Assembly (NCBI GenBank): GCA_036383875.1 | Contig: DASVNL010000032.1 | Span: forward strand, 1-43,649 | DNA from: Thermoanaerobaculia bacterium | GTDB lineage: Bacteria; Acidobacteriota; Thermoanaerobaculia; Gp7-AA8 | DNA length: 43,649 nt | Direction of reading: 5' to 3' | Shown: one piece after another, positions 26,480 through 42,774 of the stretch | Layout: each line of letters opens with the position of its first letter | Numbering within the stretch: position 1 is the stretch's first letter | Notes under the pieces: model-generated | What the model was told of the DNA's origin: nothing | What the model saw: the letters and a program-made list of their open reading frames with translations, nothing else | Database searches by the model: none | Position numbers and translations under genes: made by a program

Positions 26480-26932
26480 ATGTTCGACGACACGCACGAT
26501 CTCATCCAGCAAATGATGGCCGCGTACGCCGACGACGCAGTCAGCTTTGCGCGTCAGGTCTTTTCGATCGAACTGAATTCATCGCCGGACAGCATCCAAC
26601 AAGTCGAATTCATCCTCGACAAACTCTCCCGCTCCGTCCGCCGAACCTGGCTCAAACGCCTCCTCCGCCTCGGCATGTCCGAAGAGCAAACCGACACCGT
26701 CGCGAAAATGTTCGGCGGCTACATCGGCGAAATCATCCGCAAAGACAAAGGCGGCATCTGGCAAATCATCGCCAGCCCCACCGGCGAAGGCGACGTCGTC
26801 GCCCTCGTCAACGGCGAAGACAAAATCTTCCCACCCGCCAAGGCCTACAAGCGGCTCGTAAACGGCGACGAGGACAACGTCTGGTTCTATTACCAGGTGT
26901 TGATGTCCGGCGAGGTTTACGGAAGCCGGTAA
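26480..26932 (+). CDS. hypothetical protein
   Basis: 150-aa ORF with normal composition. It starts 1 nt after the previous stop. Its 3' end overlaps the convergent caspase gene by 16 nt. No family recognised. Confidence 0.55.
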   Translation: MFDDTHDLIQQMMAAYADDAVSFARQVFSIELNSSPDSIQQVEFILDKLSRSVRRTWLKRLLRLGMSEEQTDTVAKMFGGYIGEIIRKDKGGIWQIIASPTGEGDVVALVNGEDKIFPPAKAYKRLVNGDEDNVWFYYQVLMSGEVYGSR

Positions 26933-28566
26933 CGACGCCGCTTTCGCGGGGCGTCTTTCCAGGCATCAGTCTTCCGCGCTGGATCTCCGTCTGAATCGAA
27001 GTATGCCGTTCGACGGGTCGTCGTGACCGCTATGTCCTGGCGCTTCAACTCGGGATCGCGGCTGACGATCTGCAGATCCCGAATTTCATCGCCTTCCGGT
27101 GCGACGCGGTGCCAGCGCACCGAAGCAGCACTCGTCAGAGAGAAGAGCGAGTCGGCTGTGGCCGCAACGATCCAGGGCTTATGACTCGAGGTTTGCCGGA
27201 ACACCGCGACGTTTCGCAATCCTGTGAGTCCGGTGAATTGGCCCGTAATCTCGCCATCGCGACCGATGATCGTGATCGCCGAATCGGAAAGCGCGACGAT
27301 TTGATCCACATGCTTGCGCTCTAAATCGCCAGTGGCGAATGTCCGAAGTCCGGGAATCTCCTTCTGCCTCACCTCCGCGAACTCGCGATTGAAGATGATG
27401 AGCCGTTCTTTGAGCGCGACGATGATTTCCGAAACACCGTCTGCGTCCACGTCGGCTACGCCCGCATGAAGGATCGGCGACGGAAATACGGGTTCCCAAA
27501 GCTTCTGGTTTTCCTGATTCTTCAGTGTCAGGTGGCTGCCATCGAATGAGACGCTCAACACTTCGCGGCCTGACGGTCGGTTCCAGCATTTCGAGAGCGG
27601 CATCCGGCCCGCGTTCCCGTCGATTCGTACCTGAATCGCAGCGCCGACCGGTGCTTTGTGATTCGCAAGAATCCATTGTTTGACCTGCTTCTCTGCATGC
27701 CGGTGCAGGGACTCGGCGGTCACAAATTCATCGGTCGCTGAAGCTTGGCAGTCCAGTCCATCGAGAACCGCCTTCGTGAAAACGCCGTTGCGACTCACGG
27801 CGTCGTCGTACGCGTAATTGCCTGCGGATGCCGCATAGAACACGACCTGACCGGATACGTTCTTCATCTTCTTTTCAATGTCGGGGGCGGCGGACGCCGC
27901 GCCGGAGCGGGTATTGCTGAGAGCGCGATCGCGGCAGGCGTCGACGAAGATCAGCGAACGGCGCACTGGCGAGTTTGAGACGATGTCGAAAAGGAGCGCC
28001 GTCTTGAGTGAGGTATGGGTGTCGGGATAGGTGGATGACTCCACGAGGATGTATTCACTGCCATCCGTCATGAACCCGTGCGTAGCGATGGAGAGGATGA
28101 ATATGCCGGCCGGCCCGGCGATCGCTGTCTGTTGTCGCAATTGATAGAGGATCTCGCGCGCGGTTGCCGTGACTTCTTTGGCGCCGGCCTCTTTCAGTTC
28201 TTTGAGGCGCTGCTTCGATTTGTCTTTCACCGGTGCGCCTGAGAGTGCGAGTACAACGCGTTGCGGCGGGATCAGGTGCAGGCGCCGGTCCATGGAAAAC
28301 ATGTACGCAAGGTCGACGGCATCGTCGACGGCGTATCGCACACCATACATGTCTTTATCTCTGAATTTGCTGACCCCCACGAACAACCCCGCGGATTCGT
28401 GGCGATCGAATTTCGGCTCGGGCGCTGCCGTCGTCGCGACCGCGCTCACGGGTCCTGCCGATCGCACGTGGCGTACGAGAGGGACGAATGTCGCGGTGGT
28501 CAGGCCGAGGAGGGCGAGGGCGAGGACGAGCGGCTTCCACGATCTCATCTGCATAGGCAAAGACAC
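26917..28566 (-). CDS. membrane-anchored caspase-family (peptidase C14) protein with C-terminal beta-propeller/FG-GAP-like region
   Basis: 549 aa. N-terminal TM anchor WKPLVLALALLGLTTATFVPLV. The His/Cys dyad contexts are FILSIATHGF and LIFVDACRD, followed by VVFYAASAGNYAYDD...GVFTKAVLDGL. The C-terminal half contains GVADVDADGVSEIIVAL. The start is ambiguous (GTG 28566, ATG 28554 or ATG 28548). Confidence 0.75.
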   Translation of the reverse strand: MSLPMQMRSWKPLVLALALLGLTTATFVPLVRHVRSAGPVSAVATTAAPEPKFDRHESAGLFVGVSKFRDKDMYGVRYAVDDAVDLAYMFSMDRRLHLIPPQRVVLALSGAPVKDKSKQRLKELKEAGAKEVTATAREILYQLRQQTAIAGPAGIFILSIATHGFMTDGSEYILVESSTYPDTHTSLKTALLFDIVSNSPVRRSLIFVDACRDRALSNTRSGAASAAPDIEKKMKNVSGQVVFYAASAGNYAYDDAVSRNGVFTKAVLDGLDCQASATDEFVTAESLHRHAEKQVKQWILANHKAPVGAAIQVRIDGNAGRMPLSKCWNRPSGREVLSVSFDGSHLTLKNQENQKLWEPVFPSPILHAGVADVDADGVSEIIVALKERLIIFNREFAEVRQKEIPGLRTFATGDLERKHVDQIVALSDSAITIIGRDGEITGQFTGLTGLRNVAVFRQTSSHKPWIVAATADSLFSLTSAASVRWHRVAPEGDEIRDLQIVSRDPELKRQDIAVTTTRRTAYFDSDGDPARKTDAWKDAPRKRRRYRLP

Positions 28567-28596: not shown

Positions 28597-28643
28597 TTTT
28601 TCCCTCCCTCGTGTCCTTTCATGGACAGCAATCAGGGAGACAT

Positions 28644-29774
28644 ATGAGACGCGGACTCCTCATCGCGGTAGCGTTGCTTCTCATTTCCAATGAGGCCTCG
28701 GCGCAGAAGCTCGGGCCGGTCGACTGGATCTTTCTCGTCGACACGTCGAAGTCGATGCGTGGCATCGGCCGCGACACGAAGGACATCTTTGGCGACGTAA
28801 AAGAGAGCCTCAAGTCGTTCGTACGCGAGACGAACGACGGCGACACGGTCGCGATCTTCACGTTCGATCGCAAGGTGAGTCCGATTGCGAAGATGGACGT
28901 GAGCGGACTCACGCGCGCCGATCTTTACGAGTCGATCGAGCAGCTAAAGGCCGAAGGGGACCGCACGCACCTCGGTGCCGCGATCGCGAAAGGTCTCGAT
29001 CGTGCGGAGTTCTTGCGCACGCATTCCGATCCGACGCGCGCTCGCGCCGTCGTGTTGTTCACGGACGGCAAAGAAGACATTCGCGGAATTGAGAACCCAA
29101 CTCACATCAACGCGAATCTTGCCGGAACCTCGGACTCGTACGTCTACTTCGTTTCGATGGGCAAGGAGCACGAGAAACAACTCGACGAATTTGCCAAGAG
29201 CACTCCGCGCGCGACCGTGCTGCGCGCAACTACGCGCGAACAGATTCGCGCCATGGCGCAGACGATTCGCCGAGATCTCCCGAAGCCCACGCCTCCACCG
29301 CCCATCAAAGAGAAGCCGGCGACTCCACCGCCACCACCACCACCGCCCTCTCCGTGGATGCGCGCACTGCGCTGGTTGATCGAGCTCGCGATCCTCGGCG
29401 GTATCGCGATCTTCCTGCTGCAGCAGCAGCGCAAGAAGAATCGGCTCGAAGGGGAGATCGAGATTCTGCGACCGCAGACCGCGCCCGACCTCGCATTTGT
29501 CGGACTGCCGAAATTGCAGGCGAGCGAGGTGATGCTCAGCGCGATTCTGCCGCTCGACGCATTGAGCGGCGGCGATGCGCGTCTGTTCGTCAAGCGCAAA
29601 GACGGGAAAAAGAAAATCTGGATTTCCGCCGCCGGCGGCGGACTGCGCATCAACGACGTCGACACGCCGGTGAGCGAGTTGTACGACGCCGACACGATCG
29701 AGATCGGCACCGCGAAATTGCGCTTCAACCGCGTCGGCGACGAGCGTCCGTACGACGTCGACTCCGCCCACTAA
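28644..29774 (+). CDS. exported vWA-domain protein with poly-Pro linker, single TM and cytoplasmic FHA-like C-terminal domain
   Basis: 376 aa from ATG 28644 (SD AGGGAGA). Signal peptide MRRGLLIAVALLLISNEASAQ. The MIDAS motif is FLVDTSKSM. The linker is PKPTPPPPIKEKPATPPPPPPPPSP. The TM is WLIELAILGGIAIFLL followed by RKKNR (positive inside). The C-terminus LRINDVDTPVSELYDADTIEIGTAKLRFN resembles the end of an FHA domain. Confidence 0.75.
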   Translation: MRRGLLIAVALLLISNEASAQKLGPVDWIFLVDTSKSMRGIGRDTKDIFGDVKESLKSFVRETNDGDTVAIFTFDRKVSPIAKMDVSGLTRADLYESIEQLKAEGDRTHLGAAIAKGLDRAEFLRTHSDPTRARAVVLFTDGKEDIRGIENPTHINANLAGTSDSYVYFVSMGKEHEKQLDEFAKSTPRATVLRATTREQIRAMAQTIRRDLPKPTPPPPIKEKPATPPPPPPPPSPWMRALRWLIELAILGGIAIFLLQQQRKKNRLEGEIEILRPQTAPDLAFVGLPKLQASEVMLSAILPLDALSGGDARLFVKRKDGKKKIWISAAGGGLRINDVDTPVSELYDADTIEIGTAKLRFNRVGDERPYDVDSAH

Positions 29775-29796: not shown

Positions 29797-32553
29797 ATGA
29801 AAAACAACGTCGTGTTTCGCCCCACTGTCGTCATCGGACTCGGTGGTACCGGCTATGGCGCATTGCTGAAGTTGAAGAAGCGTTTCGTCGACGCGTACGG
29901 CTCGGTGCCGCCGATCATTCGCTTCCTCTCGATCGACACGACGGAGAACGCCGAGGGGACGACGCGGACGGAGGAGGCCCCGCAGGAGGGTGGGCTCGAT
30001 CACAACGAGATGTACGTCCTGCAGGTCGGCAATCCCGGAAATCTCGTGGGAAATGGAACGAATCCGCATCTCGATGAATGGTGGCCGCCCGAAATTCCGA
30101 CGCAGGCCATCATCGCGGGCGCCGGCCAGGTGCGTGCGCGCGGACGCCTGGCGCTCTTCGCGAAGGCGCAAGAGGTGCGCGCGCGGATCCAGCGCGCGAT
30201 CGACGACGTGCGAAACATCCGCAATCAGAAGCAGATGTATTCGGATCAATTTCAGATCTCGAATCGTGCGGGCGTTGAAGTGCACATCGTCGGCAGTCTC
30301 GCGGGTGGCACTGGCAGTGGGACATTTCTCGACGTCGCGTTCATCGCGCGCGACATCATCGGCAGCGACGAGAACTCGAATTTCACCGGCGTGTTGTTGT
30401 TGCCCGGGATTTTCACGCGCTACGCGGGAGTCGCGCTCGTCAAGCCGAACGCGTACGGCGCGCTGAAAGAGATTGAATATCTCTCGACGATGAAAGGCAG
30501 TCTCACGATCGACTATGGCATGCGCCGCGTCGAGGTGACGCGGCCGCCGTTCGACGTCGTCTATCTGATCGACAGCATCAACGAGCAAGGCCGGGTCGTC
30601 ATGGAACAGAACGATCTCCTCGGCCTGATCGCAGACGGAATGTACGTCCAGATCGGATCGCAGATCGGCACCGACAGCGCGAACGCCGTCGACAACATCA
30701 AGACCCAGATTGCGACCGCGGGTCGCGTCAAAGGACGTTCGCCGCAGTACTGCAGTTTCGGCGTCGCGTCGCTGACGATGCCGACGTTCGACGCGCTGAT
30801 GTGGGAGGACGCGAAACGCCTCGTCAATGATGATCTCCTCAATGGCGCTGTCGCGGATTCCGAAGTCGAAGAAGAGGTGCAGCGCTTCATCGACCAGAAC
30901 CGCCTGCGCGAAGACGAGGCCGATCAGGTCGTCGAATTTCTCAGTCAGCGCGAGGGCGGCGGTCAGTTGCGCATCCCGATGCCGCTCACGCAACTCACCT
31001 TCGACAACAAGGCCCTCGGCGCAATCAAGAATCTGCACACCACGCATCGCTCGCGCGCCGAGCGTCAAATTGCGCAGGCCATCGGCGCGAATTTCGAGAA
31101 ATTACGCGATGACTGCGTGGCAGCGATCACGACGCTATGGGAAGCGAAGGTGAATCGCATCAATGGATTCACGCGCGCGGAGCGCTTCTTCGAGAAGCTC
31201 CAGGCGAAGCTGGAGTGGTACCAAAACATGATGGACGGCGAAGCGAAGGAGGAGCGCACGAAGCTGAAGGCGCTGAGCTTCAAGCCGGCCGAGGATCAGA
31301 TTACGGAGGCGGCGGGCGCGTTCTTTAGTCGCGAGGCGCGCGTGAAGACGGCGTGCGAAGTGTACGGCGGACTGGTCGATCGCGAGACCGAACTGACGAT
31401 TCGTGTCGCGCGACTCGAGAAGGCCGCCGAGCTTTATTCGACGCTGCATGCGCACACGCAATCGATCCTCAATTCCTGCTACCGCATCCGCGAAAACCTC
31501 AATGCATCGCGCAAGCAATTCGAGCAGCAGTATCTCGACGCGACGAACCCGCGCGGGTCGTCGCGGTTGTTCGAACAGACCGTCGCCTTCGATCCCGGCG
31601 CACAACGTCCGAAGGTTCTCGGCGATGACTTCGTGAAGTGGTACGCCGATCATCACGCGAACGGCTCGCTCTCGCAGTGGGCCGGACTGCGCGCGGCCGA
31701 AGTCCACGCGGACATTCGCCAGTTCGTCGAGAAATGTTATGAGCCGCTCACGTCACTCACGATGGACGACATCCTGAGCCGTCTCTCGCCGGATGCGGTG
31801 TCGCAGGAATTGAAGCGCCTGGATAATCTCGCCGTTCCTCTCTGGCGTTACGACCTCGGCAGAATTCCGGTCGTCAATCAAACCATCATCAATGAGTTCT
31901 ATCACTACGGCGTTTCAGACGCGGAGTCGACGGTGCTCAAGGCGGCGCGTTATGCGACGGGCGTTCCCAAGGGCAACGCGCAACCGGGCATGGTCTCGAC
32001 GCGCGACGCGAACCGCATCCTCCTGTTCAAGGTCAAGACCGGCATTCCGCTGTTCGCGCTTGCCGACATTGAAGACATGGAGCGCGCGTATACCGATCCG
32101 AACAAGATCATCTCGTGTCACCTTCACCGCGACTGGAAGGAACTACAGAACCTCATTCCGCGCAGTGGCGACGGCGAGGCATTGCGGTGGTTCGCGCTCG
32201 CGCAGGCGCCGGAGCCGTTCGCGATCATCAAGCGCGAGGGCGCGTGGTATTCGATGAAGTCGAAGGGCGGCAAGCGCCTCGACAACAACATGGTTCGACT
32301 CGCGCAGGGCCGCGTGCCGGCCTACAACGCGTTCGAGAAAAATCGGGAACTCGTTCAGGAAGCGGAGGAATCGATCGATGCCGTAGTCACGCGCGAAGGC
32401 GCGGTGCGCGTCATTCAGATCCTCAAGGACTACACGGACACGCTCTCGAAGCAGATGAGCGGGACGGCCGTCGATCCGGTGGTGAAGGATCAAGTCGAGA
32501 ACGAGATTCTGGCCATTGAGGATTACGTGCGGCGGATGGAGACGCTGAGCTGA
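29797..32553 (+). CDS. tubulin/FtsZ-superfamily GTPase (Tubulin_2-like) with a ~600-aa helical C-terminal extension
   Basis: 918 aa. T1-like VVIGLGGTGYG lies at 29836-29859. The tubulin-signature-like motif GSLAGGTGSGTFLDVA has AGGTGSG at 30301-30321. No signal peptide or TM. No division/cell-wall gene context. Confidence 0.75.
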   Translation: MKNNVVFRPTVVIGLGGTGYGALLKLKKRFVDAYGSVPPIIRFLSIDTTENAEGTTRTEEAPQEGGLDHNEMYVLQVGNPGNLVGNGTNPHLDEWWPPEIPTQAIIAGAGQVRARGRLALFAKAQEVRARIQRAIDDVRNIRNQKQMYSDQFQISNRAGVEVHIVGSLAGGTGSGTFLDVAFIARDIIGSDENSNFTGVLLLPGIFTRYAGVALVKPNAYGALKEIEYLSTMKGSLTIDYGMRRVEVTRPPFDVVYLIDSINEQGRVVMEQNDLLGLIADGMYVQIGSQIGTDSANAVDNIKTQIATAGRVKGRSPQYCSFGVASLTMPTFDALMWEDAKRLVNDDLLNGAVADSEVEEEVQRFIDQNRLREDEADQVVEFLSQREGGGQLRIPMPLTQLTFDNKALGAIKNLHTTHRSRAERQIAQAIGANFEKLRDDCVAAITTLWEAKVNRINGFTRAERFFEKLQAKLEWYQNMMDGEAKEERTKLKALSFKPAEDQITEAAGAFFSREARVKTACEVYGGLVDRETELTIRVARLEKAAELYSTLHAHTQSILNSCYRIRENLNASRKQFEQQYLDATNPRGSSRLFEQTVAFDPGAQRPKVLGDDFVKWYADHHANGSLSQWAGLRAAEVHADIRQFVEKCYEPLTSLTMDDILSRLSPDAVSQELKRLDNLAVPLWRYDLGRIPVVNQTIINEFYHYGVSDAESTVLKAARYATGVPKGNAQPGMVSTRDANRILLFKVKTGIPLFALADIEDMERAYTDPNKIISCHLHRDWKELQNLIPRSGDGEALRWFALAQAPEPFAIIKREGAWYSMKSKGGKRLDNNMVRLAQGRVPAYNAFEKNRELVQEAEESIDAVVTREGAVRVIQILKDYTDTLSKQMSGTAVDPVVKDQVENEILAIEDYVRRMETLS

Positions 32554-35351
32554 TGCTCAAGCCCGTTAGCATTCTCGCCCTCGACGATGCCTCGGCGCCG
32601 CTCGCAATGGCGGTGCAACAACGCATCGCGTCGCAGCTCGAGCTCGACGATCTCGTGCAATGCCGCGCCATTGGAGCGACGACGCTCGAGGATGCGATTC
32701 AGTCAATTCACGCGCAGCGCCAGCGTCCCGACAGTCCGCTGCGCGTGCGCGACGATCTCAGTCCGCGCGAATTGGTGATGGTCGTGCTGGCCGCGTCCGG
32801 GCCCGCACGATTGACGCTCATCGAGACGGTGCAGCGCATTCGCCGTCATTACGAGTCGCGCCACCTGGTGTCGTTCTTCACGATTGAGATTCTCTGCTTG
32901 ATGCCCGAGGTGATTGGGGCGAAGGAGAAGGGCGACTATGCGAATGCATATGCGTTGCTGAAGGCGCTGAGCGCCGATGGTGCGAAAGCGTTCGACGAAG
33001 TGTGGCTGCTCGACGCGACCAACGGCGCGCGCGTGCGGTTCGGCGCGATCGACACGGCGCTCGATGCCTACGCGGATGCCGTTGCGGGCTCGCTGTTACA
33101 CGAGCCGGAGATGAGCGGCGCGCTGCCTGGCCTCCATCCGCGCGGGATGCATCCGACGTTCAGTTCGTTCGGATACGCGGAGCTCGTGTTTCCGCGCGAC
33201 ATCGCGCTGCGGCGGCTCGAGCCGCGATTCGCGGTGCAATTGCTGCGCGAGACGTTGCTCGCCGGCAAGGAGCCATCGCACGCGCAACTTGCGGCAAAGC
33301 AGTTCGTCGCGAGCGATGAGTTCACGACGCCGCTCGCGCGCATCGGCGTCGACGCGGGGCAGTCGCTCTTTCAGCGATTCCAGGCGCGTGCGCACGTCAC
33401 GGAGCAGACGCGCAGTGCGGACGAATTGATCGCGGCGGTGCGCGCCGAGTTGAAATCGTTTCGCGACACGACGCATCTCAAGAATCTCGAGACGCTCGCG
33501 AAGCAGGGCGAGCAGACATCGCGCGACTTCGCGACGCGACTCGCGCGCGTCGTCGACGAGACGCTCGATCGCGACGGATACGACTCGGCGATCGCGCTGC
33601 TCGACGCGTTGCTCGATCCGCTGCCGGATTTGCGTCCGGACGCGGAGCTCGCGCCGCGCAATCTCGTGACGGAAATCGGCGCGGCGACGGCGGCTCTCGA
33701 CAAGCAGTTGCAGTTCACGCCCAACACCGCGACGAGCGACGCCGCGCGCAAGCGCATCCGTGAGCTCGAGACGTTGATGCAGGATCAGAAGCTCGTCGCG
33801 GAGTCGCTGTCGCCGGTGTCCGCGGCGGAGCAACTCGAGGAAATGCAACGCGAGAAATCCGCACTGTTGCAACGCGTGCCTGAGGTGCTGTTCGCGGAGG
33901 AGCGGGAGAACAACGTCGCGCGCAACGCGGCGCGCGAGGCGGAGACGGCGCGACTGATGGCGGAGACCGAGGGGCGCGAGCAGACGTTGCGCGAATTGTT
34001 TGCGCAGTTGCCGCGCGCGGAGCAGGCGGTGCGTGAGGCGCTGGAGTTGCGACGCGACTGGCTGCGCAAGCAGGTCCTCACCGCGATCGCGGGCGTCGCC
34101 GCGATGTATGGGCTGCCATTCGTTTTCGGTCTGCTGCGCCCGAACCTCGAGCGCATCCACTGGGCCACCGGCCTCGGCCTGCTGACCTTCGCGATCGTCT
34201 GCACGTATCGCTACTTCAATCAAATCCAACCGCTCGTCAGCGGTGCGCGCGCGGCACTGGCGCGACTGCGTGAACAGATCGCGGCGACCGATCAGTCGAA
34301 GAACGCGGCGCACAACGACGAGCTGCGATTCGAATACGACATGGCGCATCGCCGCACGACGATCCGTGTGCTGCGCGAAACGCGCGACGTCGCGAAGACG
34401 ACGCTAGACGCCGTGCGCGCGCGACGCGTCGAGCTCGAGGAACTGGCAGCGGCGCTGACGCCGGCGTCGATCGTCTCGAGCGGACTGACGATCGCGATCG
34501 TGGACGACGCGGAAGTCGACGCGTGGTACGAGCGCACGATCGAGGATCGCAAGCCATTCGTGCGCGAGTTTCCGATCACGCGCGCGCAGTCGCGACAACT
34601 GGCGCTCGATGATCTGCGCGAACGCATCGTCGCGTACACCGCGACGGCGTTCGACGCGTTCCGCAAGTTCACGCTCGCCGATGCAGCGGCGAATGTCGCG
34701 AGCGAGCCGAAACTCACGCAGCGCATGAAGCGATTCACCGATACGAGCGCGCCGCTGATCGAAGTGCGCGACGACGATCTGCACGCGCAGAACGCGATGC
34801 AGCGCGACGCGACGTTGTGGGCAGACAGCAGCGATCGGACGTGGCTCGAACAGCTGCAGCGTCGCTTTCCGAGCGCGCATTTCAAGGCGTCGTCGGATGC
34901 ATTGCGCGTCCACGCGATCACGCGCGTCCTGCACTATCCGGCCTACGTCCTCGGGCAAATCGAGTATTACCGCGCGCAATACGAAGCTGCATCGCAGCGC
35001 GAGTCCGCCGACGTCGCGGATCTGCTGCCGCCCGAGCTCATTCTCGGGACGCCAGTGCGGAACGCGTACGAGCAGGTGCTGCTCGCACGCGCGGTCGGCG
35101 TGATCTCGCAACACGCCGACGGGCAACTCTTCGCCTCCGACTCCGCCCTCGGCAACTCGCACTTCGCCGCGGCTCAACGCATCGCCGATGCAGCGCCGTT
35201 GCGCGATGCGTTGGAGAACGCGCTCGCGCCGCGATTGGAAATCGCGGGCGATGTCACGCGGGATTTGCGCACGCTCGGCGAGTTGCCGCTCACGCCGCTC
35301 GAACGCAATCTCGTCGACGCGTTGCTCAAGAGGTACGCGGCGCTGGCGTGA
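32553..35351 (+). CDS. degenerate tubulin-like paralogue with coiled-coil regions and a central two-helix membrane hairpin
   Basis: 932 aa. TGATG 1-nt overlap with the upstream gene. The N-terminal ~250 aa are collinear with the upstream protein, but the GTP motifs are replaced (ILALDDASAP for IGLGGTGYG; VVLAASGPARL for GSLAGGTGSGT). The TM hairpin lies at ~34074-34215 (LTAIAGVAAMYGLPFVFGLL ... WATGLGLLTFAIVCTYRYF). Long Glu/Arg/Leu/Ala-rich helical stretches are present. Confidence 0.7.
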   Translation: MLKPVSILALDDASAPLAMAVQQRIASQLELDDLVQCRAIGATTLEDAIQSIHAQRQRPDSPLRVRDDLSPRELVMVVLAASGPARLTLIETVQRIRRHYESRHLVSFFTIEILCLMPEVIGAKEKGDYANAYALLKALSADGAKAFDEVWLLDATNGARVRFGAIDTALDAYADAVAGSLLHEPEMSGALPGLHPRGMHPTFSSFGYAELVFPRDIALRRLEPRFAVQLLRETLLAGKEPSHAQLAAKQFVASDEFTTPLARIGVDAGQSLFQRFQARAHVTEQTRSADELIAAVRAELKSFRDTTHLKNLETLAKQGEQTSRDFATRLARVVDETLDRDGYDSAIALLDALLDPLPDLRPDAELAPRNLVTEIGAATAALDKQLQFTPNTATSDAARKRIRELETLMQDQKLVAESLSPVSAAEQLEEMQREKSALLQRVPEVLFAEERENNVARNAAREAETARLMAETEGREQTLRELFAQLPRAEQAVREALELRRDWLRKQVLTAIAGVAAMYGLPFVFGLLRPNLERIHWATGLGLLTFAIVCTYRYFNQIQPLVSGARAALARLREQIAATDQSKNAAHNDELRFEYDMAHRRTTIRVLRETRDVAKTTLDAVRARRVELEELAAALTPASIVSSGLTIAIVDDAEVDAWYERTIEDRKPFVREFPITRAQSRQLALDDLRERIVAYTATAFDAFRKFTLADAAANVASEPKLTQRMKRFTDTSAPLIEVRDDDLHAQNAMQRDATLWADSSDRTWLEQLQRRFPSAHFKASSDALRVHAITRVLHYPAYVLGQIEYYRAQYEAASQRESADVADLLPPELILGTPVRNAYEQVLLARAVGVISQHADGQLFASDSALGNSHFAAAQRIADAAPLRDALENALAPRLEIAGDVTRDLRTLGELPLTPLERNLVDALLKRYAALA

Positions 35352-35355: not shown

Positions 35356-36126
35356 TCAGTTGCGCTGCAATTGTTCGATCGCGCGTCGCAACGCCGCGAT
35401 CTCTTCGCGCAGCTCGTTGTTGCTGTTCGTTTCTGCTTTCTGATCGGGCGACAGGAACCAGGTCGCGAGTCCCGCCGAGACGACGCCGAAGAGTCCGACG
35501 CCCGCAGTCATCAACAACGCGGCGACCATGCGTCCGGCGGTGGTCATTGGGAACTTGTCGCCGTACCCGACGGTCGTGATCGTGGTGATCGCCCACCAAA
35601 TCGCATCCTCGGCCGTCATGATGTTCCCGGTATTCGGATCTTCGAAATGCAAAACCGCAGTCGCGCCTGCGAATACGAGAACCACGGCGAGCAAGGTCGC
35701 GGCGAGCAATGTCGATTGTTTACGGCGACTGAGAATCGCAGTCGAGAGCACCCGCGCGGCACGAAGTCCGCGCAGCAATCGCGCGATGCGTGCGATGCGC
35801 GCAATGCGACCCCACCGCGCGACGTCGAGCATCGGAATTGACGAGAGCAGGTCGAGCCAGCCCCACGTGAGGAAATACTTCATCCGATTCGGCGCGCGCC
35901 ACAACGTGATCAGAAAATCGATCCCGAACGCGATGCAGATCGCCGTGTCCGCATACATCAACACGCCTTCAATCTGCGAGTCGTGATCGACCGCGTTCTG
36001 CGCGACCACGCCCGCAAGCGCGAGCACGCAAAGCGCGAGCATGAAGAGTTGATAAACCGGCATGGCGCTGCGCGCCGGTTGTGCTGGCGCCGAGGCGGCG
36101 GGAGTGGCAAGTGCGTCAGTGGACAT
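35356..36126 (-). CDS. voltage-sensor-containing K+ channel (6TM Kv/KvAP-like)
   Basis: 256 aa. The S4-like segment is RWGRIARIARIARLLRGLRAARV. The selectivity filter is TTVGYGD. A short C-terminal coiled coil is present. SD AAGGAG follows 12 nt after the caspase stop. Confidence 0.85.
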   Translation of the reverse strand: MSTDALATPAASAPAQPARSAMPVYQLFMLALCVLALAGVVAQNAVDHDSQIEGVLMYADTAICIAFGIDFLITLWRAPNRMKYFLTWGWLDLLSSIPMLDVARWGRIARIARIARLLRGLRAARVLSTAILSRRKQSTLLAATLLAVVLVFAGATAVLHFEDPNTGNIMTAEDAIWWAITTITTVGYGDKFPMTTAGRMVAALLMTAGVGLFGVVSAGLATWFLSPDQKAETNSNNELREEIAALRRAIEQLQRN

Positions 36127-36138: not shown

Positions 36139-37941
36139 TCAACGCCGTAGTTTACGCGGCGGCACGGATTCAAACGCCGCTCTTTCGATCGACCACGCGC
36201 TCGTCGTCAGCGTGCGGCCGGCGCGAATGCCATCCCAGTCGAGCACCGACGGATTCGGCAGCGGCTCTTCGGTCGACAAGAGAAAGAACAAATCGGCGCC
36301 ATACGGCGGCTTGACCTCGAAGACGGAGTTGTCGCCGAGGGTGATCGTGGATGCGATTTCACCAAGAGGAAAGCGATTCTCGACCGAGCCGTTGCTGCTT
36401 TGTGGGAACGCGAGAAAGCTTTTGCCGTGGCTGTCGATCACGAACGCGTAGTAGTAGCGTTTCGGCGCCCTGCGATTCGTGCCTTGCAATACGACGCGAT
36501 AGCGCTCGCCACCGATGAGCGTGTTGCCGGTGACGAGCGACCGATCGGCTTCGCGTTGCAGCGCGAGCCGGTACGGCGCGGCGGGCCCGGGCGGAGACTC
36601 GAGATTTCGCCAGCCGTGAATCTTGCGCAGCGTCAACGCGGACTCGCGCAGCGACGCACGGTTCGCAATCCACGCGCTTCGTTCATTTCGCGCGCCGGTG
36701 CGAATCCACGCGTGCTCTTGACCTTTGCTCGCGAGGATGTAGTCCGCGTCTGCCGCAGTTGCGACGATCTGGAAGCCGTCGCTGGAATCGATGATGCCGG
36801 TCAGCGGCGATTGCGACCACACGCGCAATGGTCGCGACGGAGGTGCGGCCCACGAGCTCACTTCGAGCATTGCGCCGGCGGTGACGCGGCCACGCTCGAT
36901 GCGCGCGACGCTGCGGTGAATGCCGAGGAGACGGGTGACGACGAGGCGGGACGCGTTGTCGCGCGTCTTGAGGATGCTGCCGATCGCGAGGCCGTTCGCC
37001 CAGCCGCCCTGCACGACGACGGTGCCGTTCGCATCGACGCGTTCGATCGCGACAACCGATTGTCGATCGCGAAGGTGGAGTCGCGTGTCGAGGAAGGGTC
37101 GATTGCGAGCGGCGCTCGTTCCCGCAAGCACGGGCTGCTGATCGGGATGCTCGGCGCGCATCCGCGCATGGGCGCGAAGGAACGTCTGTTGCGCGGACTC
37201 GTGCGGTGTCGCGTCGCGCAGAGCGTGCAGGAATGCCCACGTGAAGTCGCCGTGCAGTTCATCGTCGTCGCCCAACGATTCCCACGCGGTGCCATTGTCC
37301 TGTGCAGCCGCGATCACGAGCGCGCCGCGCGTTTCGGGTCGCGGGCCGTAGTCTGTGCGATCGCGCACGTCGGTGGTCGCGGGCTGAATGCTGCGCGTGC
37401 GAGGTGATCCGCGGAAGGACGAGCCGCTGTTGCAATGATCGAGGAGCAGCGTGAGGTGCGTCCCGCGATCGAGGATCGCGTTGAAGCGCGTGCGCAGTTC
37501 CTTGTCGCGAATGTCCGGCGCGCCGCGACGCGAGTCGGCGGGAACGATTGATTCGTCGAGCCGATCGAGTTCGTCGGACAGCGAATTGGGAATTTGCGAG
37601 CCGTGCCCGGCGAAGTAGAAGAACGCGACATCGCCTTTGCGTGACGCGTTCACGAGATCGTCGATGGCTCGCAGGATTGCGACGCGTGTCGCGCGTTGAT
37701 TGAGGAGCGTGACGACGTCGCCCGTCGCGAATCCGTATCGCGACGTCAATAGCTCGCGGAGCAATTGTGCGTCACGTGCCGCGCCACGGAGATCAGGCCA
37801 GCCGCGATGCTCGACGTTGCGTACTTTTGGGATGGTCGACGCGGTGTAATCGTCGATGCCGATGATCACCGCGCGTTTGCGAACTGTTTGCGCGTCCGCG
37901 GTCATCGCGATCAGGCAGGTGAATGCGAGAACGAATTTCAT
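36139..37941 (-). CDS. exported caspase-family (peptidase C14) protein with C-terminal DUF4384-like domain
   Basis: 600 aa from ATG 37941 (MKFVLAFTCLIAMTADAQ signal; ATGA overlap with the upstream gene stop). The dyad contexts are FFYFAGHGSQ and LLLDHCNSGS. The C-terminus YYYAFVIDSHGKSFLAFPQ...FEVKPPYGADLFFLLSTEEPL matches my memory of DUF4384. Confidence 0.75.
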   Translation of the reverse strand: MKFVLAFTCLIAMTADAQTVRKRAVIIGIDDYTASTIPKVRNVEHRGWPDLRGAARDAQLLRELLTSRYGFATGDVVTLLNQRATRVAILRAIDDLVNASRKGDVAFFYFAGHGSQIPNSLSDELDRLDESIVPADSRRGAPDIRDKELRTRFNAILDRGTHLTLLLDHCNSGSSFRGSPRTRSIQPATTDVRDRTDYGPRPETRGALVIAAAQDNGTAWESLGDDDELHGDFTWAFLHALRDATPHESAQQTFLRAHARMRAEHPDQQPVLAGTSAARNRPFLDTRLHLRDRQSVVAIERVDANGTVVVQGGWANGLAIGSILKTRDNASRLVVTRLLGIHRSVARIERGRVTAGAMLEVSSWAAPPSRPLRVWSQSPLTGIIDSSDGFQIVATAADADYILASKGQEHAWIRTGARNERSAWIANRASLRESALTLRKIHGWRNLESPPGPAAPYRLALQREADRSLVTGNTLIGGERYRVVLQGTNRRAPKRYYYAFVIDSHGKSFLAFPQSSNGSVENRFPLGEIASTITLGDNSVFEVKPPYGADLFFLLSTEEPLPNPSVLDWDGIRAGRTLTTSAWSIERAAFESVPPRKLRR

Positions 37942-38324
37942 GGCCACGATCCGCACGGTTCCAGCGACCGCGCTTCCTTTTCAGTCGTGGCGCCGTAAGT
38001 CCACAAACGTTCATTGACGTCTCGGTAGGTGACGGCGCGAAATCTACGGTCGGCGGCGAATTTCTGAATGCCGCCTTCGTAGACCTTGTATTTCGGCGAG
38101 CCGTATTGAAACGCCTCGACGATGTTGTCAGTCAGCGCTTGGCCGGTCTGCACGAGCAGCACCTGACAATCGTTGCCGGCGGCGTAACTACGGATGCTCC
38201 ACTTGGGGAATTGTCTGTAGCGTTCTGTGAGCTCATCCGACGCTTTGATGTGAGCCTCGGCGACAGGATCGGCATCGCAGGCCAGAAAGAGAGTGAGCAG
38301 AGTCATAGCGAGCAGGCGGTGCAT
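37938..38324 (-). CDS. small lipoprotein, unknown function
   Basis: 128 aa with the lipobox LTLFLAC. SD AGGAGG upstream of ATG 38324. Translationally coupled (ATGA) to the caspase gene. Confidence 0.6.
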   Translation of the reverse strand: MHRLLAMTLLTLFLACDADPVAEAHIKASDELTERYRQFPKWSIRSYAAGNDCQVLLVQTGQALTDNIVEAFQYGSPKYKVYEGGIQKFAADRRFRAVTYRDVNERLWTYGATTEKEARSLEPCGSWP

Positions 38325-38343
38325 GACGCCTCCTGATGAGAGA

Positions 38344-38373
38344 ACGGCTCGCCATCAAGCGATGGCGAGCCGT
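38344..38373 (-). other. perfect 13-bp stem / 4-nt loop intercistronic hairpin
   Basis: ACGGCTCGCCATC aagc GATGGCGAGCCGT lies between the stop at 38391 and the SD/ATG of the lipoprotein gene. No U-tract follows on the minus strand (tctctc). Confidence 0.6.
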
Positions 38374-38390
38374 CGAATGGAAGTGTGGGA

Positions 38391-39452
38391 TTACGGCCAG
38401 GTCGTCGGGGGACAGAGGGAGCGGTCGTACAGCGTCCGTCCGACATCGAAGCGCAGCGCGGTGAGCAGCGCCGACGCCGTCGTGCCCGAGGGGTGGATGC
38501 TCGACCACGTCACCTCGGGGACCTCGATTTCGCCGACCGCGCCTGCGCGCGGCACGAGGCGCTCCTCGCGCGCCGGCGGCTCTTCGAGCAACTCGTAATA
38601 CATCTCGAAGTGCTTGCCGGCCTGCGGGGCGTTGTTGTTCGACGACGCCGGCGGAACGAACGGCGGGAGATTCACGACCGCCACTTCGACCTTGCCCGAC
38701 ACGTCGGGAGAGAGCGTCATTGTGCGGCCGCCGCCGGCGTATTTCGATTCAACGAATTTCACGCTGTCGCCGGTCACAGTGATGTCGGCGCCGACCCACG
38801 TGGCCACGGCCTGAACGTAGGCGGAATTACTGCCGGTACCGTCGAGGCGATTGAAATGCACGGGCGTGACGTCACTGCCGATGCGCGCAATGCCGAACGT
38901 GTACAGATCGCCGGCGGACAGCTTGAAGCGCGCGGCGATGAGCTCCGGCGGGATCGTATCGAACACGTCGGCGTCGAGCGTGCAGCCGCCACCGCAGACG
39001 GTATTGAGGCTGGCGATCCAGGAGATGTCTTCACGCTCGCTGGTCGTCGTCGGGATGACTTTGGGATTGCCGTTGGTCGTGCCGCGCACGTTGTCGCGGA
39101 GATTGAAGGCTGGGAGATTGGCCGCGCCGGAGCTGGCTTTCTCGACAGTGATGTCGGAGCCGGCGATCAGCCATGCGCTGCCGTCGCCCAATGCGGTTTC
39201 GAGTGAGTCCACCGCGGTGGACGGCGTATCGCGGAAGGTGGTGTTGGCGATGGTGCTGTTGTTGGTGACGCAGTCGCCGGTGCAGTCGCCGGCACGCGCA
39301 TAAAGGATGGGCGTGTGGGCCTGCAGGGCGGCGCCGTCGGACGTGTGATAGTGATCGGCGTTGAGAAGCAGCACGGTCACTTCCGTGCCGTTCTCATTGG
39401 GGACGAAGGCCATCAGGCCGGTGAACAGAATTCTCAGGATGAAGGTGCTCAA
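38391..39452 (-). CDS. hypothetical protein, unknown family
   Basis: 353 aa from TTG 39452 (SD GGAGGA 8 nt upstream). Normal composition. It begins MSTFILRILFTGLMAFVPNENGTEVTVLLLNADHYH and contains Cys pairs GDCTGDC and CGGGC. It overlaps the CHAT 3' end by 59 nt. The track start (39500) is also possible. Confidence 0.55.
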   Translation of the reverse strand: MSTFILRILFTGLMAFVPNENGTEVTVLLLNADHYHTSDGAALQAHTPILYARAGDCTGDCVTNNSTIANTTFRDTPSTAVDSLETALGDGSAWLIAGSDITVEKASSGAANLPAFNLRDNVRGTTNGNPKVIPTTTSEREDISWIASLNTVCGGGCTLDADVFDTIPPELIAARFKLSAGDLYTFGIARIGSDVTPVHFNRLDGTGSNSAYVQAVATWVGADITVTGDSVKFVESKYAGGGRTMTLSPDVSGKVEVAVVNLPPFVPPASSNNNAPQAGKHFEMYYELLEEPPAREERLVPRAGAVGEIEVPEVTWSSIHPSGTTASALLTALRFDVGRTLYDRSLCPPTTWP

Positions 39453-42168
39453 TTTGTTTTTCCTCCAGTGCTGGTGTGGTGCCGTACGGCGAAGTCGCAA
39501 ATCCGACTGCCTGGAACGGGGCCCACACCATTGCTGACTTTCTCGGGAGCATTTCGAGCTGCGCCTTTCTCAGCGCCGCTGCCATATCGGCTCCTTCGCG
39601 ATAGTGACGATGAAATGACACGAACAGATCGTGTGCTGTGGCGTCATTCACCTTCCAAAGCGTGCCGACGATTCCCGGAACATTGGCCGCAACCAGCGGC
39701 CGCACTAGAGACGAGAGTCCTTCCGGCCCAATGGACTGGCCATCCGTGGTACTGCACGCGGCCAGAACGAAGAGACGAGTTTTTTCAAGGGTGTCGAAGT
39801 TGGCGAGCAGGCGCTCCGCCGTGAGCTTCCCCCGGTCTGCGCCCGAAGGAGCGAGCACCAGCATCGACTGCGAGGGCGCCGCGCTGTCGGATTTCGCGTG
39901 ACCGGCGAAATGAACAATGGAGCTTTGCCGCGCGTGCGACAGAAATTCGGGCACCGTAGCCTCGGTATCGACGAGCGATGTGACCGCGGAACCATAATAT
40001 TGGGCGAGACTCGCCGGCTCCATCCGGGCGTTCGGCAGCCGTCCCAGGCCGACGAAGTCCTCGAGTGAAAATGCCGGATCGCCGACGACCAGAACCTTGC
40101 CGTGGGGATCGCGGGGTAATTCCCGATCGCGCGCTACTGCATAGAAAAATAAAGACGCACTGCCGGCCACCGACACGGGACCCTTTTCGATCAGGTATCG
40201 ATTGGCGTCGTCCTTTAATGCCTCGAATGGCAGCGCGTGCATCGGCCCATCCGGGACGATGATGAAGCGAGGCATCGGGTGTTTGACCGACGTCAGTGCC
40301 GGCGCAAGAAGTCCGTCGTAGGGAGCGCGTAGTCCATCGTCGAAGCTCTGCTCATATCCATCCGCGATGGCGGCGTGAAGCGTCGCGACCCAAGCTTCGA
40401 TCTGTCCCCGCGTCGCGCGAAGTCTGAAGAGCTTGACGTCGTCACGCGAGATGAGCCACACGAAGGTGTGATTCTCCAGGACCAGATATTCGAGGATGTA
40501 CGTACCGGCAGGGAGGGACGTATGCGCGTCTTTCAGCTCGCGCAAAGACTCGATTTTGTGAAACCCGGCCGGCGGCGTCCGCGAGTGCAACGCGAGATAC
40601 ATTGGCTCGAACGCGCGCGCCTGTTCCGCCGAAACGAGAGCCGCCTCCGTCTCTTGCCGCGCGGCCTGCTTTTCGATCTGCGCGTGGTAATGCGACTGAA
40701 AGCGGGAGAAGTATGGCGTGGAGAATTCCTCGAACTTCCCGCGCTCACGCCCGCGCAGCAGCGCCTCCTGCTCTTTCCTCAGGACCTCCAACGCCGTGAC
40801 CACGTCCTTCTGTTCGCTCGCAGAGTCGCCGGCAAAACGATGTGCGGCTGAGCGTTTGAGGTAGAGGAGAAAGAGCCGCGTCGGATTTTCACCAGTAGCC
40901 GTGTCGATGGCTTTCGTGAAAATCTTTACTGCCTCGGCCGGCTTGCTCTTGGCGAGCAACTGCGCCTCGACTTCGTCGATCTCCGATCGCACCAGGTTGT
41001 ACGTTTCAGTACCCAGTTGAGCGGAGTCGAGCACGCGTTGGGCGAGGTCAATGTCGAGCGCAGCGTCGGCTTCGCGTCCCAGTTCGAGCTCGAGTGCGGC
41101 GCGTGCGCGCAGCGCGACGGCGTATTCCTGCTTAGGTTTGCTCGCACGCCCGGCTGGAGCCAGAGCGACGGCGCGCTTGATGTCCTCGACGGCGACTTCC
41201 TGATAGAGGAGCCCCAAGCGGGGATGGCCTTGCAATCGGAGAATCGTGGCGATTGAGCCGTAGGCGATGTGGCGCTCGCGAAGATCAGTGATTCGGGGGA
41301 AGAGGTCCACGATCCGTAACGCATCTTTCCACGCCAGGTCATCGCGACCGAGATACTGATGAGTCAGAATTCTTCGGCCAATGATGGATTGATACTGAAC
41401 GTTTGAGTCGCGCTCCAGTTCGTCAAAGTACGGTAAGGCTTGCAAGTACTCGCCCCGGAAGTTGTGAGACTCGGCGAGAAGTAGGGCGGCTCTGTACCGA
41501 AGCGACGGGTAGGTCGCCTTCATTGCGGCGTCGAATGCCGGCTTCAATCGTGCGATTGCCCCCGAATAATCTTGCATCGAATACAGCGCAAACCCGGTGT
41601 TGTAGTCGGACAACGCTTTCAACGGGCCACTGGAGGCAACAGGAGGATGCCCGATGACAAAGCCCGCAGCCAGGAGGTCACTCGGAAAGCGATCGCCATT
41701 TTCGGCGAATACGGTTGCAAGTAAAGGATTCGGATCCCCCAATTCGAAATAGGACGCGACGGGCGAAGGGAAGGCCTTGACGAATTGCTGCATCGTCGCG
41801 CGATCGCCTCTTTGAACGGCAGCTATAAACCGGTCGCGATCTGCGACGAGCGGCGGCGGGATGCTCAGCAATTCATCGCGACGCTTGCGGGCTTCGCGGC
41901 TCCATTCGCCCTCATTCATCTTTACGACGTTGTCGAACGTCGCGATGGCCAATCTGGTCAGGCCGAGCTCTTCCTGAATGACGGCCAATTTGTACTGCTT
42001 AGAAGGGGAACTGGGATCAGCGGCTACCTCGGCGGTGGCGAGTTCCCAGGCTCGCGGTAAATCTGCGGGCGGGGTTCGCCCCTTTTCGAATCGGGCCGTG
42101 TCTTCCTTTGTGCAGGCCGGCAAAAGGCTGCAGAGAGATAGAAGAATGCAAATGATTCTTTGTTTCAC
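39394..42168 (-). CDS. TPR-repeat + CHAT-domain (caspase-fold protease) lipoprotein
   Basis: 924 aa from GTG 42168 (VKQRIICILLSLCSLLPAC lipobox). The middle is a long TPR-like helical repeat region. The C-terminal CHAT contexts are IVHFAGHAKSD and LFVLAACSTTDG, ending VWAPFQAVG. The track ORF start (42444) would overlap the divergent sigma gene. Confidence 0.75.
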   Translation of the reverse strand: MKQRIICILLSLCSLLPACTKEDTARFEKGRTPPADLPRAWELATAEVAADPSSPSKQYKLAVIQEELGLTRLAIATFDNVVKMNEGEWSREARKRRDELLSIPPPLVADRDRFIAAVQRGDRATMQQFVKAFPSPVASYFELGDPNPLLATVFAENGDRFPSDLLAAGFVIGHPPVASSGPLKALSDYNTGFALYSMQDYSGAIARLKPAFDAAMKATYPSLRYRAALLLAESHNFRGEYLQALPYFDELERDSNVQYQSIIGRRILTHQYLGRDDLAWKDALRIVDLFPRITDLRERHIAYGSIATILRLQGHPRLGLLYQEVAVEDIKRAVALAPAGRASKPKQEYAVALRARAALELELGREADAALDIDLAQRVLDSAQLGTETYNLVRSEIDEVEAQLLAKSKPAEAVKIFTKAIDTATGENPTRLFLLYLKRSAAHRFAGDSASEQKDVVTALEVLRKEQEALLRGRERGKFEEFSTPYFSRFQSHYHAQIEKQAARQETEAALVSAEQARAFEPMYLALHSRTPPAGFHKIESLRELKDAHTSLPAGTYILEYLVLENHTFVWLISRDDVKLFRLRATRGQIEAWVATLHAAIADGYEQSFDDGLRAPYDGLLAPALTSVKHPMPRFIIVPDGPMHALPFEALKDDANRYLIEKGPVSVAGSASLFFYAVARDRELPRDPHGKVLVVGDPAFSLEDFVGLGRLPNARMEPASLAQYYGSAVTSLVDTEATVPEFLSHARQSSIVHFAGHAKSDSAAPSQSMLVLAPSGADRGKLTAERLLANFDTLEKTRLFVLAACSTTDGQSIGPEGLSSLVRPLVAANVPGIVGTLWKVNDATAHDLFVSFHRHYREGADMAAALRKAQLEMLPRKSAMVWAPFQAVGFATSPYGTTPALEEKQIEHLHPENSVHRPDGLRPQ

Positions 42169-42210
42169 GCATTCACTAAGATACGCGCTTCGCGCGATCG
42201 GAGACGAATC

Positions 42211-42774
42211 ATGACCAATCAGAACGGCGGCGGTGGCGGCGACGATCTGTTCCGGTCTCTGTACAAACGCTATTACCAGCGCATGCGTCGCTTTTTTCGA
42301 AGCGTCTTCAAAGTTTCGGAAGAAGATGCAGAGGAATTGACACAGGACGCATTCGTCCGGTTTTTCAAAGCCATCCGTGAATATCGCGGCGACGCTGAGT
42401 GGGCGTTTCTCGAGGCCATCGCGCGCAACGTCGGATACAACCACATCCGCTCACTGTCTACACAGCGACGCGGAAGTGTCCGGCCGGTTTCGTTGGACGA
42501 TCCCGCGGCTGGGTTCCAGGCGCCGCGCGCGTTGGTCACCGACCCGATCGACAGCATGATCGAAGGCGAGCGGCGGCAACGGTTGCGCGAGGCGATCACG
42601 AAATTGCCGAAGGGCCAGCGCGAGGCGTTGCAGTGGTGGCTGGATGGGCTTTCATACGAAGAGATCGCACGATTGCTGCGAAGCTCGGTCGACGCGGTGA
42701 AGTCGCGCATCCGCGATGGCAAACGGTTGTTGCGCGAGCGGCTTGGAGTCGCTGACCCGGAGGATGAGTCATGA
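42211..42774 (+). CDS. ECF-type RNA polymerase sigma-70 factor
   Basis: 187 aa from ATG 42211 (SD GGAGA). The region 2-like sequence is EDAEELTQDAFVRFFKAIREYRGD. The region 4 HTH is LPKGQREALQWWLDGLSYEEIARLLRSSVDAVKSRIRDGKRLLRERL. Confidence 0.85.
   Translation: MTNQNGGGGGDDLFRSLYKRYYQRMRRFFRSVFKVSEEDAEELTQDAFVRFFKAIREYRGDAEWAFLEAIARNVGYNHIRSLSTQRRGSVRPVSLDDPAAGFQAPRALVTDPIDSMIEGERRQRLREAITKLPKGQREALQWWLDGLSYEEIARLLRSSVDAVKSRIRDGKRLLRERLGVADPEDES

Follow-up and report, generated by a model that had tools for sequence, protein, structure and literature searches.

A putative active/pseudo-GTPase pair of tubulin-fold proteins with a predicted membrane hairpin in a VWA/FtsZl1-type operon of a Thermoanaerobaculia bacterium

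Known tubulin-fold pairs and the VWA/FtsZl1 operons

Alpha/beta-tubulin and BtubA/BtubB are paired tubulin-fold paralogues whose nucleotide sites are functionally asymmetric. The btubA and btubB genes are adjacent, and GTP is bound by both tubulins and by both Btub proteins, the site of alpha-tubulin being non-exchangeable rather than absent. Another pair of tubulin-fold paralogues is encoded on a stretch of 43,649 nucleotides from a Thermoanaerobaculia bacterium (Acidobacteriota; GenBank assembly GCA_036383875.1, contig DASVNL010000032.1, positions 1 to 43,649 of the forward strand), the whole of which is called the window here. Gene 2 of this locus encodes an intact FtsZl1/Tubulin_2 protein and gene 3 a full-length paralogue of it with degenerate nucleotide loops. 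Whereas alpha/beta-tubulin and BtubA/BtubB have GTP sites in both subunits, the site of gene 3 is erased; and, unlike the tubulins, which have neither feature, gene 3 has a stalk and a predicted transmembrane hairpin. A preliminary description of this DNA, made from the sequence alone, had compared the pair both to the non-exchangeable and exchangeable sites of alpha/beta-tubulin and to pseudo-enzyme regulators. The first comparison is a loose analogy, since both tubulins bind GTP and the nucleotide loops of gene 3 are erased. As to the second, gene 3 would be a dead but constrained paralogue beside a probably active relative, with 99 invariant columns among 40 orthologues.

In overall shape the pair also resembles dynamin-like proteins (DLPs). 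The Campylobacter pair Cj-DLP1/2 (PDB 5owv) and the mitofusin/atlastin GTPases likewise combine a GTPase head with a long helical stalk and a membrane hairpin or paddle, and bacterial DLP pairs are likewise membrane-acting and encoded by adjacent paralogous genes. However, DLPs have the dynamin-type P-loop GTPase fold, which is unrelated to the tubulin/FtsZ fold of the present pair, and both partners of a DLP pair retain their GTPase motifs. Matches of the gene 2 model to 5owv and 5oxf in Foldseek are weak (probability 0.33-0.51). Pseudo-GTPases and pseudokinases provide a further likeness, in that a conserved dead paralogue stands by an active relative; gene 3 is less conserved than gene 2 yet constrained. 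To our knowledge no pseudo-GTPase partnered in such a way has been described within the FtsZ/tubulin superfamily, and the literature search returned none, although absence from the searched corpus is no proof of novelty.

Within the FtsZ/tubulin superfamily the FtsZl1/Tubulin_2 proteins form the most divergent branch, which is widespread. It was described in 2010 by Makarova and Koonin (PMC2875224) as the FtsZ-like 1 family, which is Pfam Tubulin_2 (PF13809), together with the VWA/FtsZl1 operons. Additional file 5 of that paper includes the same trio of genes from Anabaena variabilis, Ava_4733 (vWA), Ava_4732 (FtsZl1, 910 residues) and Ava_4731 (1015 residues, labelled ‘same as alr2044 coiled-coil’), but the authors did not identify the third gene as a paralogue of FtsZl1, as a copy with a dead nucleotide site or as a membrane anchor. 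In Santana-Molina et al. 2023 (PMC9871819) the Tubulin_2 proteins are just an outgroup, and the gene 3 type is not identified as a paralogue. Literature searches found no experimental work on the FtsZl1 family and nothing specific on an inactive FtsZl1 paralogue, on alr2044/Ava_4731 or on a tubulin-like defence system. Within the searchable corpus, the recognition that the tubulin superfamily includes a conserved pair of one active and one dead member, its full-length collinearity and the transmembrane hairpin at the tip of the stalk appear to be new.

Large unexplained downstream genes are also present in other FtsZl1 operons of Additional file 5 (PMC2875224), among them Chloroflexus Cagg_1315 (1083 residues, with a GrpE/COG0576 label), Frankia family B1 (889 residues) and Firmicutes family B8 (about 780 residues). 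It is possible that these, too, are degenerate paralogues of FtsZl1 that have gone unrecognised.

Homology of genes 2 and 3 and loss of the nucleotide loops

The gene 2 protein matches PF13809 above the gathering score (218.8 bits over residues 11-330). It is made up of an FtsZ/tubulin-like N-domain (residues 1-350), a helical hairpin stalk (about 406-583) and a C-terminal domain (about 593-918). In its AlphaFold2 model the T1 and T4 loops lie, as in FtsZ, at transitions from strand to helix (E10-15 to H16-34 and E161-167 to H172), and a Foldseek search of the PDB with this model places FtsZ of many species at the top (E = 2e-4), followed by CetZ and gamma-tubulin. Judged against the T1 loop GxGxxG and the T4 signature GGGTG(S/T)G of the superfamily, its GTP-binding motifs are intact, so gene 2 probably encodes a competent GTPase. 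At the position expected for T7 there is a segment with invariant G291, D293, N296, D299, N300 and K302, which we infer to be the T7 loop; its spacing departs from the canonical NxDxxD/E and its predicted local distance difference test score (pLDDT) is below 50. The C-terminal domain contains a borderline match to the Pfam RecA C-terminal domain PF21096 (residues 809-861, positions 32221-32379; E = 3.4e-6; score 27.5 bits, cut-off 27), a match that is precomputed for many orthologues too.

Gene 3 is a full-length collinear paralogue of gene 2, with corresponding N-domain, stalk and C-domain. Comparison of the two single sequences gives little: BLASTP is not significant (E = 0.38), with a best high-scoring segment pair that is collinear, and Smith-Waterman alignment of the two N-domains gives a score of 48, where shuffled sequences average 33.1 +/- 4.8 (z = 3.1; 12 of 1000 shuffles reach the score), with N-versus-C controls at z < 0. 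Profiles of close orthologues (A1, 40 sequences; A2, 34 sequences) align in hhalign over the N-domains (gene 3 residues 68-238 with gene 2 residues 153-350, E = 2.9e-5) and over the C-terminal domains (647-828 with 603-788, E = 1.4e-5) at probabilities of 74-80%, with cross-domain controls at E of about 0.45; the stalk regions alone give no signal with these profiles. The strongest comparison is that of a diverse gene 3 family profile (A3, 26 relatives) with the gene 2 profile, which align over 751 columns with a probability of 99.87% and E = 1.4e-31. In profile coordinates this match runs from 4 to 1012 in gene 3 and from 9 to 879 in gene 2, and it recovers all five collinear blocks of Table 1. 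The preliminary description had picked out these five block pairs by eye and had taken the second protein to be a collinear paralogue of the first. All five are in place and the paralogy is borne out by the profile match, but the restriction of the collinearity to the N-terminal regions does not stand, since the homology covers the whole protein.

Evidence from the wider families and from models points the same way. Gene 3 itself scores 13.2 bits against PF13809 (E = 0.054), under the cut-off of 27, while 11 of its 26 relatives match PF13809 individually (E <= 0.01), the best at E = 2.7e-10. A search of 1.84 billion representative proteins with the gene 3 profile gave just 102 matches, so the family is a small one, and these include very divergent members (12-45% identity) as well as intact FtsZl1 proteins (P0325, E = 2e-8, with GVGGTG and CGGTGAG; P0334, E = 3.4e-5). 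The AlphaFold2 model of gene 3, computed from an alignment of orthologues, has a pLDDT of 86.8. It shows a tubulin-fold N-domain of alternating beta/alpha structure (residues 1-238), then a helical region, a giant helical hairpin (residues 421-634; helices 421-524 and 532-634) and a mixed alpha/beta C-domain (646-931), and its T1 and T4 positions again fall at strand-to-helix transitions (E5-9 to H15 and E73-80 to H84). Foldseek against the PDB gives beta-tubulin and BtubA/BtubB as best matches (E of at least 2.4e-3, probability 1.0, about 298 columns). By these matches both proteins belong to the FtsZ/tubulin superfamily at the level of fold, and both models have the architecture of PF13809 proteins, an FtsZ-like N-domain, an extended coiled coil and a C-domain. 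By sequence search, neither family has a solved relative in the PDB, and neither gene 2 nor gene 3 matches anything in NCBIfam or PADLOC. Gene 3 is treated here as a divergent sister family of FtsZl1 and is not counted as a member of PF13809 at the Pfam level.

Common to both families are T5 (LLP), H5, S6/T6 (WLxDxxN) and the YSSFG strand. What gene 3 has lost are the nucleotide loops, and here the earlier claim that both glycine-rich loops are erased in the second protein is confirmed in the sequence. The loop sequences were aligned for six gene 2/gene 3 pairs from loci of 41-63% G+C content. All six gene 2 proteins have G(L/I)GGTG at T1, GA(G/K)QxRxxGR in the T3-like segment (GAGQVRARGR in the window) and (S/A)GGTGSG at T4. 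In the six gene 3 proteins the T1 position reads ALDDAS (the window), ALDDKC, ALDSHS, GLGDYGS, GLGEAGS or LVGDD, the T4 position reads AASGPAR (the window), AAAGPAS, AVNPATR, FDPIGSS, ADPIGSA or CDEVGSA, and the T3-like segment is deleted throughout. The gene 3 proteins also lack a segment of about nine residues, AxDN(I/L)(K/E), which in gene 2 comes after a QIGxDS motif and is part of the putative T7 region. Counts over all loci fetched (79 gene 2-like and 83 gene 3-like proteins) extend the pattern to the families: GGTGSG at T4 is present in 79/79 gene 2-like and 0/83 gene 3-like proteins, the T3-like motif likewise in 79/79 and 0/83, and a T1-like GxGxxG in 76/79 and 3/83; even the T4 pattern GG[ST]G[SAT]G occurs in none of the 83 gene 3-like proteins.

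The former T1 loop of gene 3 has nevertheless a conserved form of its own, ALD(P/D/E)(H/A)S with an invariant Asp, from cyanobacteria to Acidobacteriota, and because this Asp is kept the pocket has been remodelled and is not simply drifting. Decay of gene 3 as a pseudogene was considered and rejected, since the reading frames are intact and conserved across phyla. Judged by its sequence, gene 3 is best taken as an FtsZ/tubulin homologue by fold and descent that should not be filed as an active GTPase, and the loss of its motifs under conserved constraint would make it a pseudo-enzyme paralogue.

The membrane hairpin, co-inheritance and layout of the locus

The second distinguishing feature of gene 3 is a predicted transmembrane hairpin, two hydrophobic helices joined by a loop of eight residues. 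In the model these helices lie at the tip of the stalk and extend both of its arms. By hydropathy such a hairpin is present in every gene 3 family protein examined and in no gene 2 partner, and no transmembrane segment is predicted for gene 2 of the window. As the hairpin helices prolong the stalk arms, both globular domains of gene 3 are expected on the same, cytoplasmic, side of the membrane. Outside the membrane the modelled stalk arms measure about 80-86 residues in gene 3 and about 72-86 in gene 2; these similar lengths would be compatible with side-by-side pairing of the two proteins. The preliminary description had assigned the membrane anchor to the inactive subunit. This holds as between the two paralogues, of which only gene 3 has the predicted hairpin, but not for the operon as a whole, where the VWA protein of gene 1 also spans the membrane.

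The two genes also travel together. A scan with a narrower alignment (A4) as query and one genome per species gave 80 further loci, most of them from Nostocales, including cultured Nostoc, Calothrix, Anabaena, Rivularia, Tolypothrix, Mastigocoleus and Chlorogloeopsis, and the remainder from Blastocatellia and Thermoanaerobaculia. A gene 2-like open reading frame lies directly upstream of the gene 3-like gene on the same strand in 86/87 loci, the exception being a disrupted or truncated locus, and where a locus reaches far enough upstream, a VWA gene almost always precedes the pair. All distant gene 3 relatives on readable contigs have a Tubulin_2 gene immediately upstream, usually with a VWA gene before it. 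A neighbour-joining tree of nine gene 2/gene 3 pairs separates the two families in 100 of 100 bootstraps, and the two subtrees show the same groupings; this split and the mirrored subtrees indicate one old duplication followed by co-inheritance. Gene 3 is the less conserved partner in 77/77 loci, with a mean identity to the window of 31%, against 47% for gene 2.

In three Nostoc and Rivularia loci (L017, L035 and L060) the gene 2-like reading frame is in two pieces, and in L060 the gene 3-like frame is split as well, so that both partners are disrupted together. The split frames could be frameshifts, pseudogenes or assembly errors.

Genes 1, 2 and 3 are compact and lie on the same strand (Table 1), and together they form one operon of VWA/FtsZl1 type. 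A spacer of 22 nucleotides with a Shine-Dalgarno-like run, GAGAGAGAGG, separates gene 1 from gene 2. Genes 2 and 3 overlap by a single base, as they also do in two other loci (L001 and L085), and this overlap suggests that their translation may be coupled. Gene 1, for which the ATG at 28644, ahead of the signal peptide, is the probable start, is predicted to encode a signal peptide, an exported VWA domain, a Pro-rich linker and one transmembrane helix (residues 252-270, by hydropathy). Its cytoplasmic tail of about 115 residues contains no domain recognised in Pfam, and an FHA-like reading of this tail made by eye was dropped for want of a Pfam match.

Table 1. Positions of the operon, its motifs and the neighbouring protease genes in the window; the collinear blocks are given in residues of the gene 2 and gene 3 proteins
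Feature	Positions	Strand	Residues	Basis or remark
Second caspase-like gene	26917..28566	-		Pfam Peptidase_C14, E = 4.3e-9; divergent from gene 1, gap about 45-80 bp
Gene 1, VWA-domain protein	28611..29774	+		Pfam VWA, E = 5.7e-15
Gene 2, FtsZl1/Tubulin_2	29797..32553	+	918 in all	Pfam PF13809, E = 1.6e-64
Gene 2 T1 loop, GLGGTG	29836..29853	+	14-19	G14, L15, G16, G17, T18 and G19 invariant in orthologues
Gene 2 T4 signature, AGGTGSG	30301..30321	+	169-175	Invariant in orthologues
TGATG, gene 2 stop and gene 3 start	32551..32555	+		Overlap by one base, read in the sequence
Gene 3, full-length gene 2 paralogue with degenerate nucleotide loops	32553..35351	+	932 in all
Gene 3 T1 equivalent, ALDDAS	32577..32594	+	9-14	Glycines replaced, Asp11 invariant
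Gene 3 T4 equivalent, AASGPAR	32790..32810	+	80-86	Replaces AGGTGSG
Gene 3 predicted transmembrane hairpin	34074..34217	+	about 508-555	Hydropathy and AlphaFold2 model
Collinear block 1			gene 2 11-30 / gene 3 6-25
Collinear block 2			gene 2 160-187 / gene 3 72-99
Collinear block 3			gene 2 216-230 / gene 3 127-141
Collinear block 4			gene 2 251-268 / gene 3 146-163
Collinear block 5			gene 2 318-334 / gene 3 203-219
Caspase-like protease (Peptidase_C14)	36139..37956	-		Pfam E = 1.1e-24; convergent with gene 3
CHAT protease	39394..42444	-		Pfam CHAT, E = 7.8e-51

The proposed heteromer, its alternatives and the flanking genes

The reading preferred here, with a probability of roughly 0.6, is that the gene 2 and gene 3 proteins form a membrane-bound heteromer in which only gene 2 cycles GTP, gene 3 acts as a tether/scaffold or as a cap and gene 1 provides an outward link. 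Gene 3 descends from a single ancient duplication of gene 2; it has kept the whole architecture, with a stalk of about 85 residues per arm, has lost the T1, T3-like and T4 loops together with part of the putative T7 region, and has gained the predicted transmembrane hairpin at the tip of the stalk. On the preferred reading the two proteins would assemble side by side through stalk-stalk contacts, head-to-tail contacts between N-domains, or both, and GTP would be bound and hydrolysed by gene 2 alone. Gene 3 would be a membrane-embedded scaffold or cap that keeps the GTPase at a distance of about 12 nm from the bilayer and links the nucleotide cycle of that GTPase with the membrane, while gene 1 probably connects the pair to an extracytoplasmic ligand or structure. 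The most likely output would be membrane remodelling or a membrane-directed response to stress or conflict.

That the partnership is obligate, as the preliminary description proposed, is supported only indirectly, but it would fit the TGATG overlap, the synteny, the mirrored subtrees and the consistently lower conservation of gene 3, and the occurrence of the pair in distant bacteria points to a two-part membrane machine. Alpha-tubulin activates beta-tubulin; gene 3, by contrast, lacks the putative T7 segment and is unlikely to be an activating subunit. A role as a T7-donating activator of gene 2, in the manner of alpha-tubulin, was rejected on this ground. With neither a nucleotide pocket nor the putative T7 segment, gene 3 may be able to stand only at the end of a gene 2 protofilament, or to alternate with gene 2 without supporting hydrolysis, and it would be more of a membrane-fixed nucleator or cap than alpha-tubulin is.

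Several points weigh against this reading or narrow it. The Foldseek E-values are modest for both models (about 2e-4 to 2e-3), because the queries were full-length models. The gene 2 model has a pLDDT of 71.3, and besides the putative T7 region residues 678-792 fall below 50. A few gene 3 relatives keep a T1-like GLGxxGS, so that residual ligand binding is possible there. The loci were chosen for the presence of a gene 3-like gene, about 65 of the 87 are from Nostocales, and they represent some 6-8 independent lineages; such a sample shows that gene 3 is always accompanied by gene 2 and does not bear on the reverse. FtsZl1 operons without a partner of the gene 3 type are numerous in other phyla (Additional file 5, PMC2875224), and the partner is thus not a general requirement of FtsZl1.

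The heteromer would matter in more than one respect. A dead, membrane-inserted copy that travels with one FtsZl1 subfamily gives a first concrete structural hypothesis for how FtsZl1 may meet the membrane. We know of no earlier case of a conserved active/pseudo-GTPase pair in the tubulin superfamily, so this one would be the first, and an independent echo of the division of labour between alpha- and beta-tubulin. The hypothesis is directly testable, since the trio is present in genetically tractable Nostoc and Anabaena.

The alternative that survives best, though it is judged unlikely, makes gene 3 a membrane effector or target that is regulated by gene 2 rather than a stable subunit. The helical bundle and hydrophobic hairpin would act like the head of a ClyA/AhlB-type alpha-pore-forming toxin or like a dynamin-like paddle, gene 3 would be set off by the GTP state of gene 2 to disturb the membrane of its own cell or make it permeable, and in Acidobacteriota the system could be part of a caspase/CHAT suicide or defence response. 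The helical part of gene 3 (residues about 244-634, positions 33282-34457) does match the tripartite alpha-pore-forming toxins AhlB, SmhB and MakA in Foldseek (E from 3e-3 to 1e-2, probability 0.9-0.99), as gene 2 more weakly does AhlB and the dynamin pair of Campylobacter, and both here and in related Acidobacteriota loci the operon has caspase-like and CHAT genes at its flanks. However, long helical bundles often match one another in a generic way, and the TM-scores, normalised by the query, are only 0.11-0.14; the hairpin, in which the stalk helices run on, has the look of a constitutive transmembrane anchor; genes 1-3 match no PADLOC defence-system model; and the link with caspases is specific to one lineage.

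A bolder proposal along these lines, which is more doubtful again, is that the pair is a tubulin-fold counterpart of the dynamin-like and mitofusin machines, in which a GTP-driven FtsZl1 subunit works through the dead, membrane-embedded twin, whose stalk and hairpin deform or breach the membrane, with an exported VWA sensor in control, and which forms, in Acidobacteriota, a suicide or defence module with the caspase and CHAT proteins. If true, this would be a previously unknown direct coupling of a tubulin-type GTPase to the lipid bilayer.

It is improbable that gene 3 has a non-canonical pocket in which a nucleotide or some other ligand is still bound, which would make it a divergent GTPase and not a pseudo-enzyme. 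The conservation of T5, H5 and S6/T6 between the families, the GLGxxGS of some distant relatives and the invariant Asp11, which suggests a conserved function of the pocket, would all suit such a protein, but 83/83 family members lack both the T4 signature, which binds phosphate, and the T3-like segment, a proline lies within the former T4 loop, and the two acidic residues at T1 in the window would repel phosphates. A chance likeness of two large coiled-coil proteins, to which the BLASTP and single-sequence Pfam values taken by themselves would be no obstacle, has a negligible probability and is already refuted by the family-profile match, the relatives that match PF13809, the negative cross-domain controls and the tubulin/FtsZ fold of both models. 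Neither of the outcomes that the preliminary description had named as fatal to its claim, a statistically insignificant alignment or unrelated predicted folds, has thus come about.

The operon is flanked on both sides by caspase-like genes (Table 1), which score about 59 bits against the NCBIfam model ‘caspase, EACC1-associated type’, under its cut-off of 140 bits. Downstream, a cluster on the minus strand (36139-42444) comprises the caspase, reading frames of 128 and 369 codons without domain matches, and the CHAT protease. In PADLOC only these flanking caspase and CHAT genes match, and then to generic models. The same four-gene cluster is found downstream in L001 (12866-19592) and L002, and so is kept in a locus whose gene 3 is just 55% identical. 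Seven Acidobacteriota loci, two of them (L001 and L002) near-identical to each other, have caspase-like genes downstream, whereas no cyanobacterial or other distant locus examined has them there; the association looks lineage-specific and does not seem to belong to the core module.

A small potassium-channel-like gene (Ion_trans/Ion_trans_2; 35356-36126, minus strand) lies between gene 3 and the caspase gene downstream of it. A fragment matching Ion_trans_2 a few genes downstream in a distant locus (L006, 13386-13631) is 48% identical to it over 68 residues, possibly by coincidence. Positions 1-24745 of the window are occupied by a pectin/hexuronate utilisation locus unrelated to the operon, which encodes a multi-domain protein of 1439 residues (GH43, pectinesterase, GDSL lipase and GH88), an outer-membrane barrel of TonB-dependent type, GH28, KduI, UxaC, a PfkB kinase and a KDPG aldolase.

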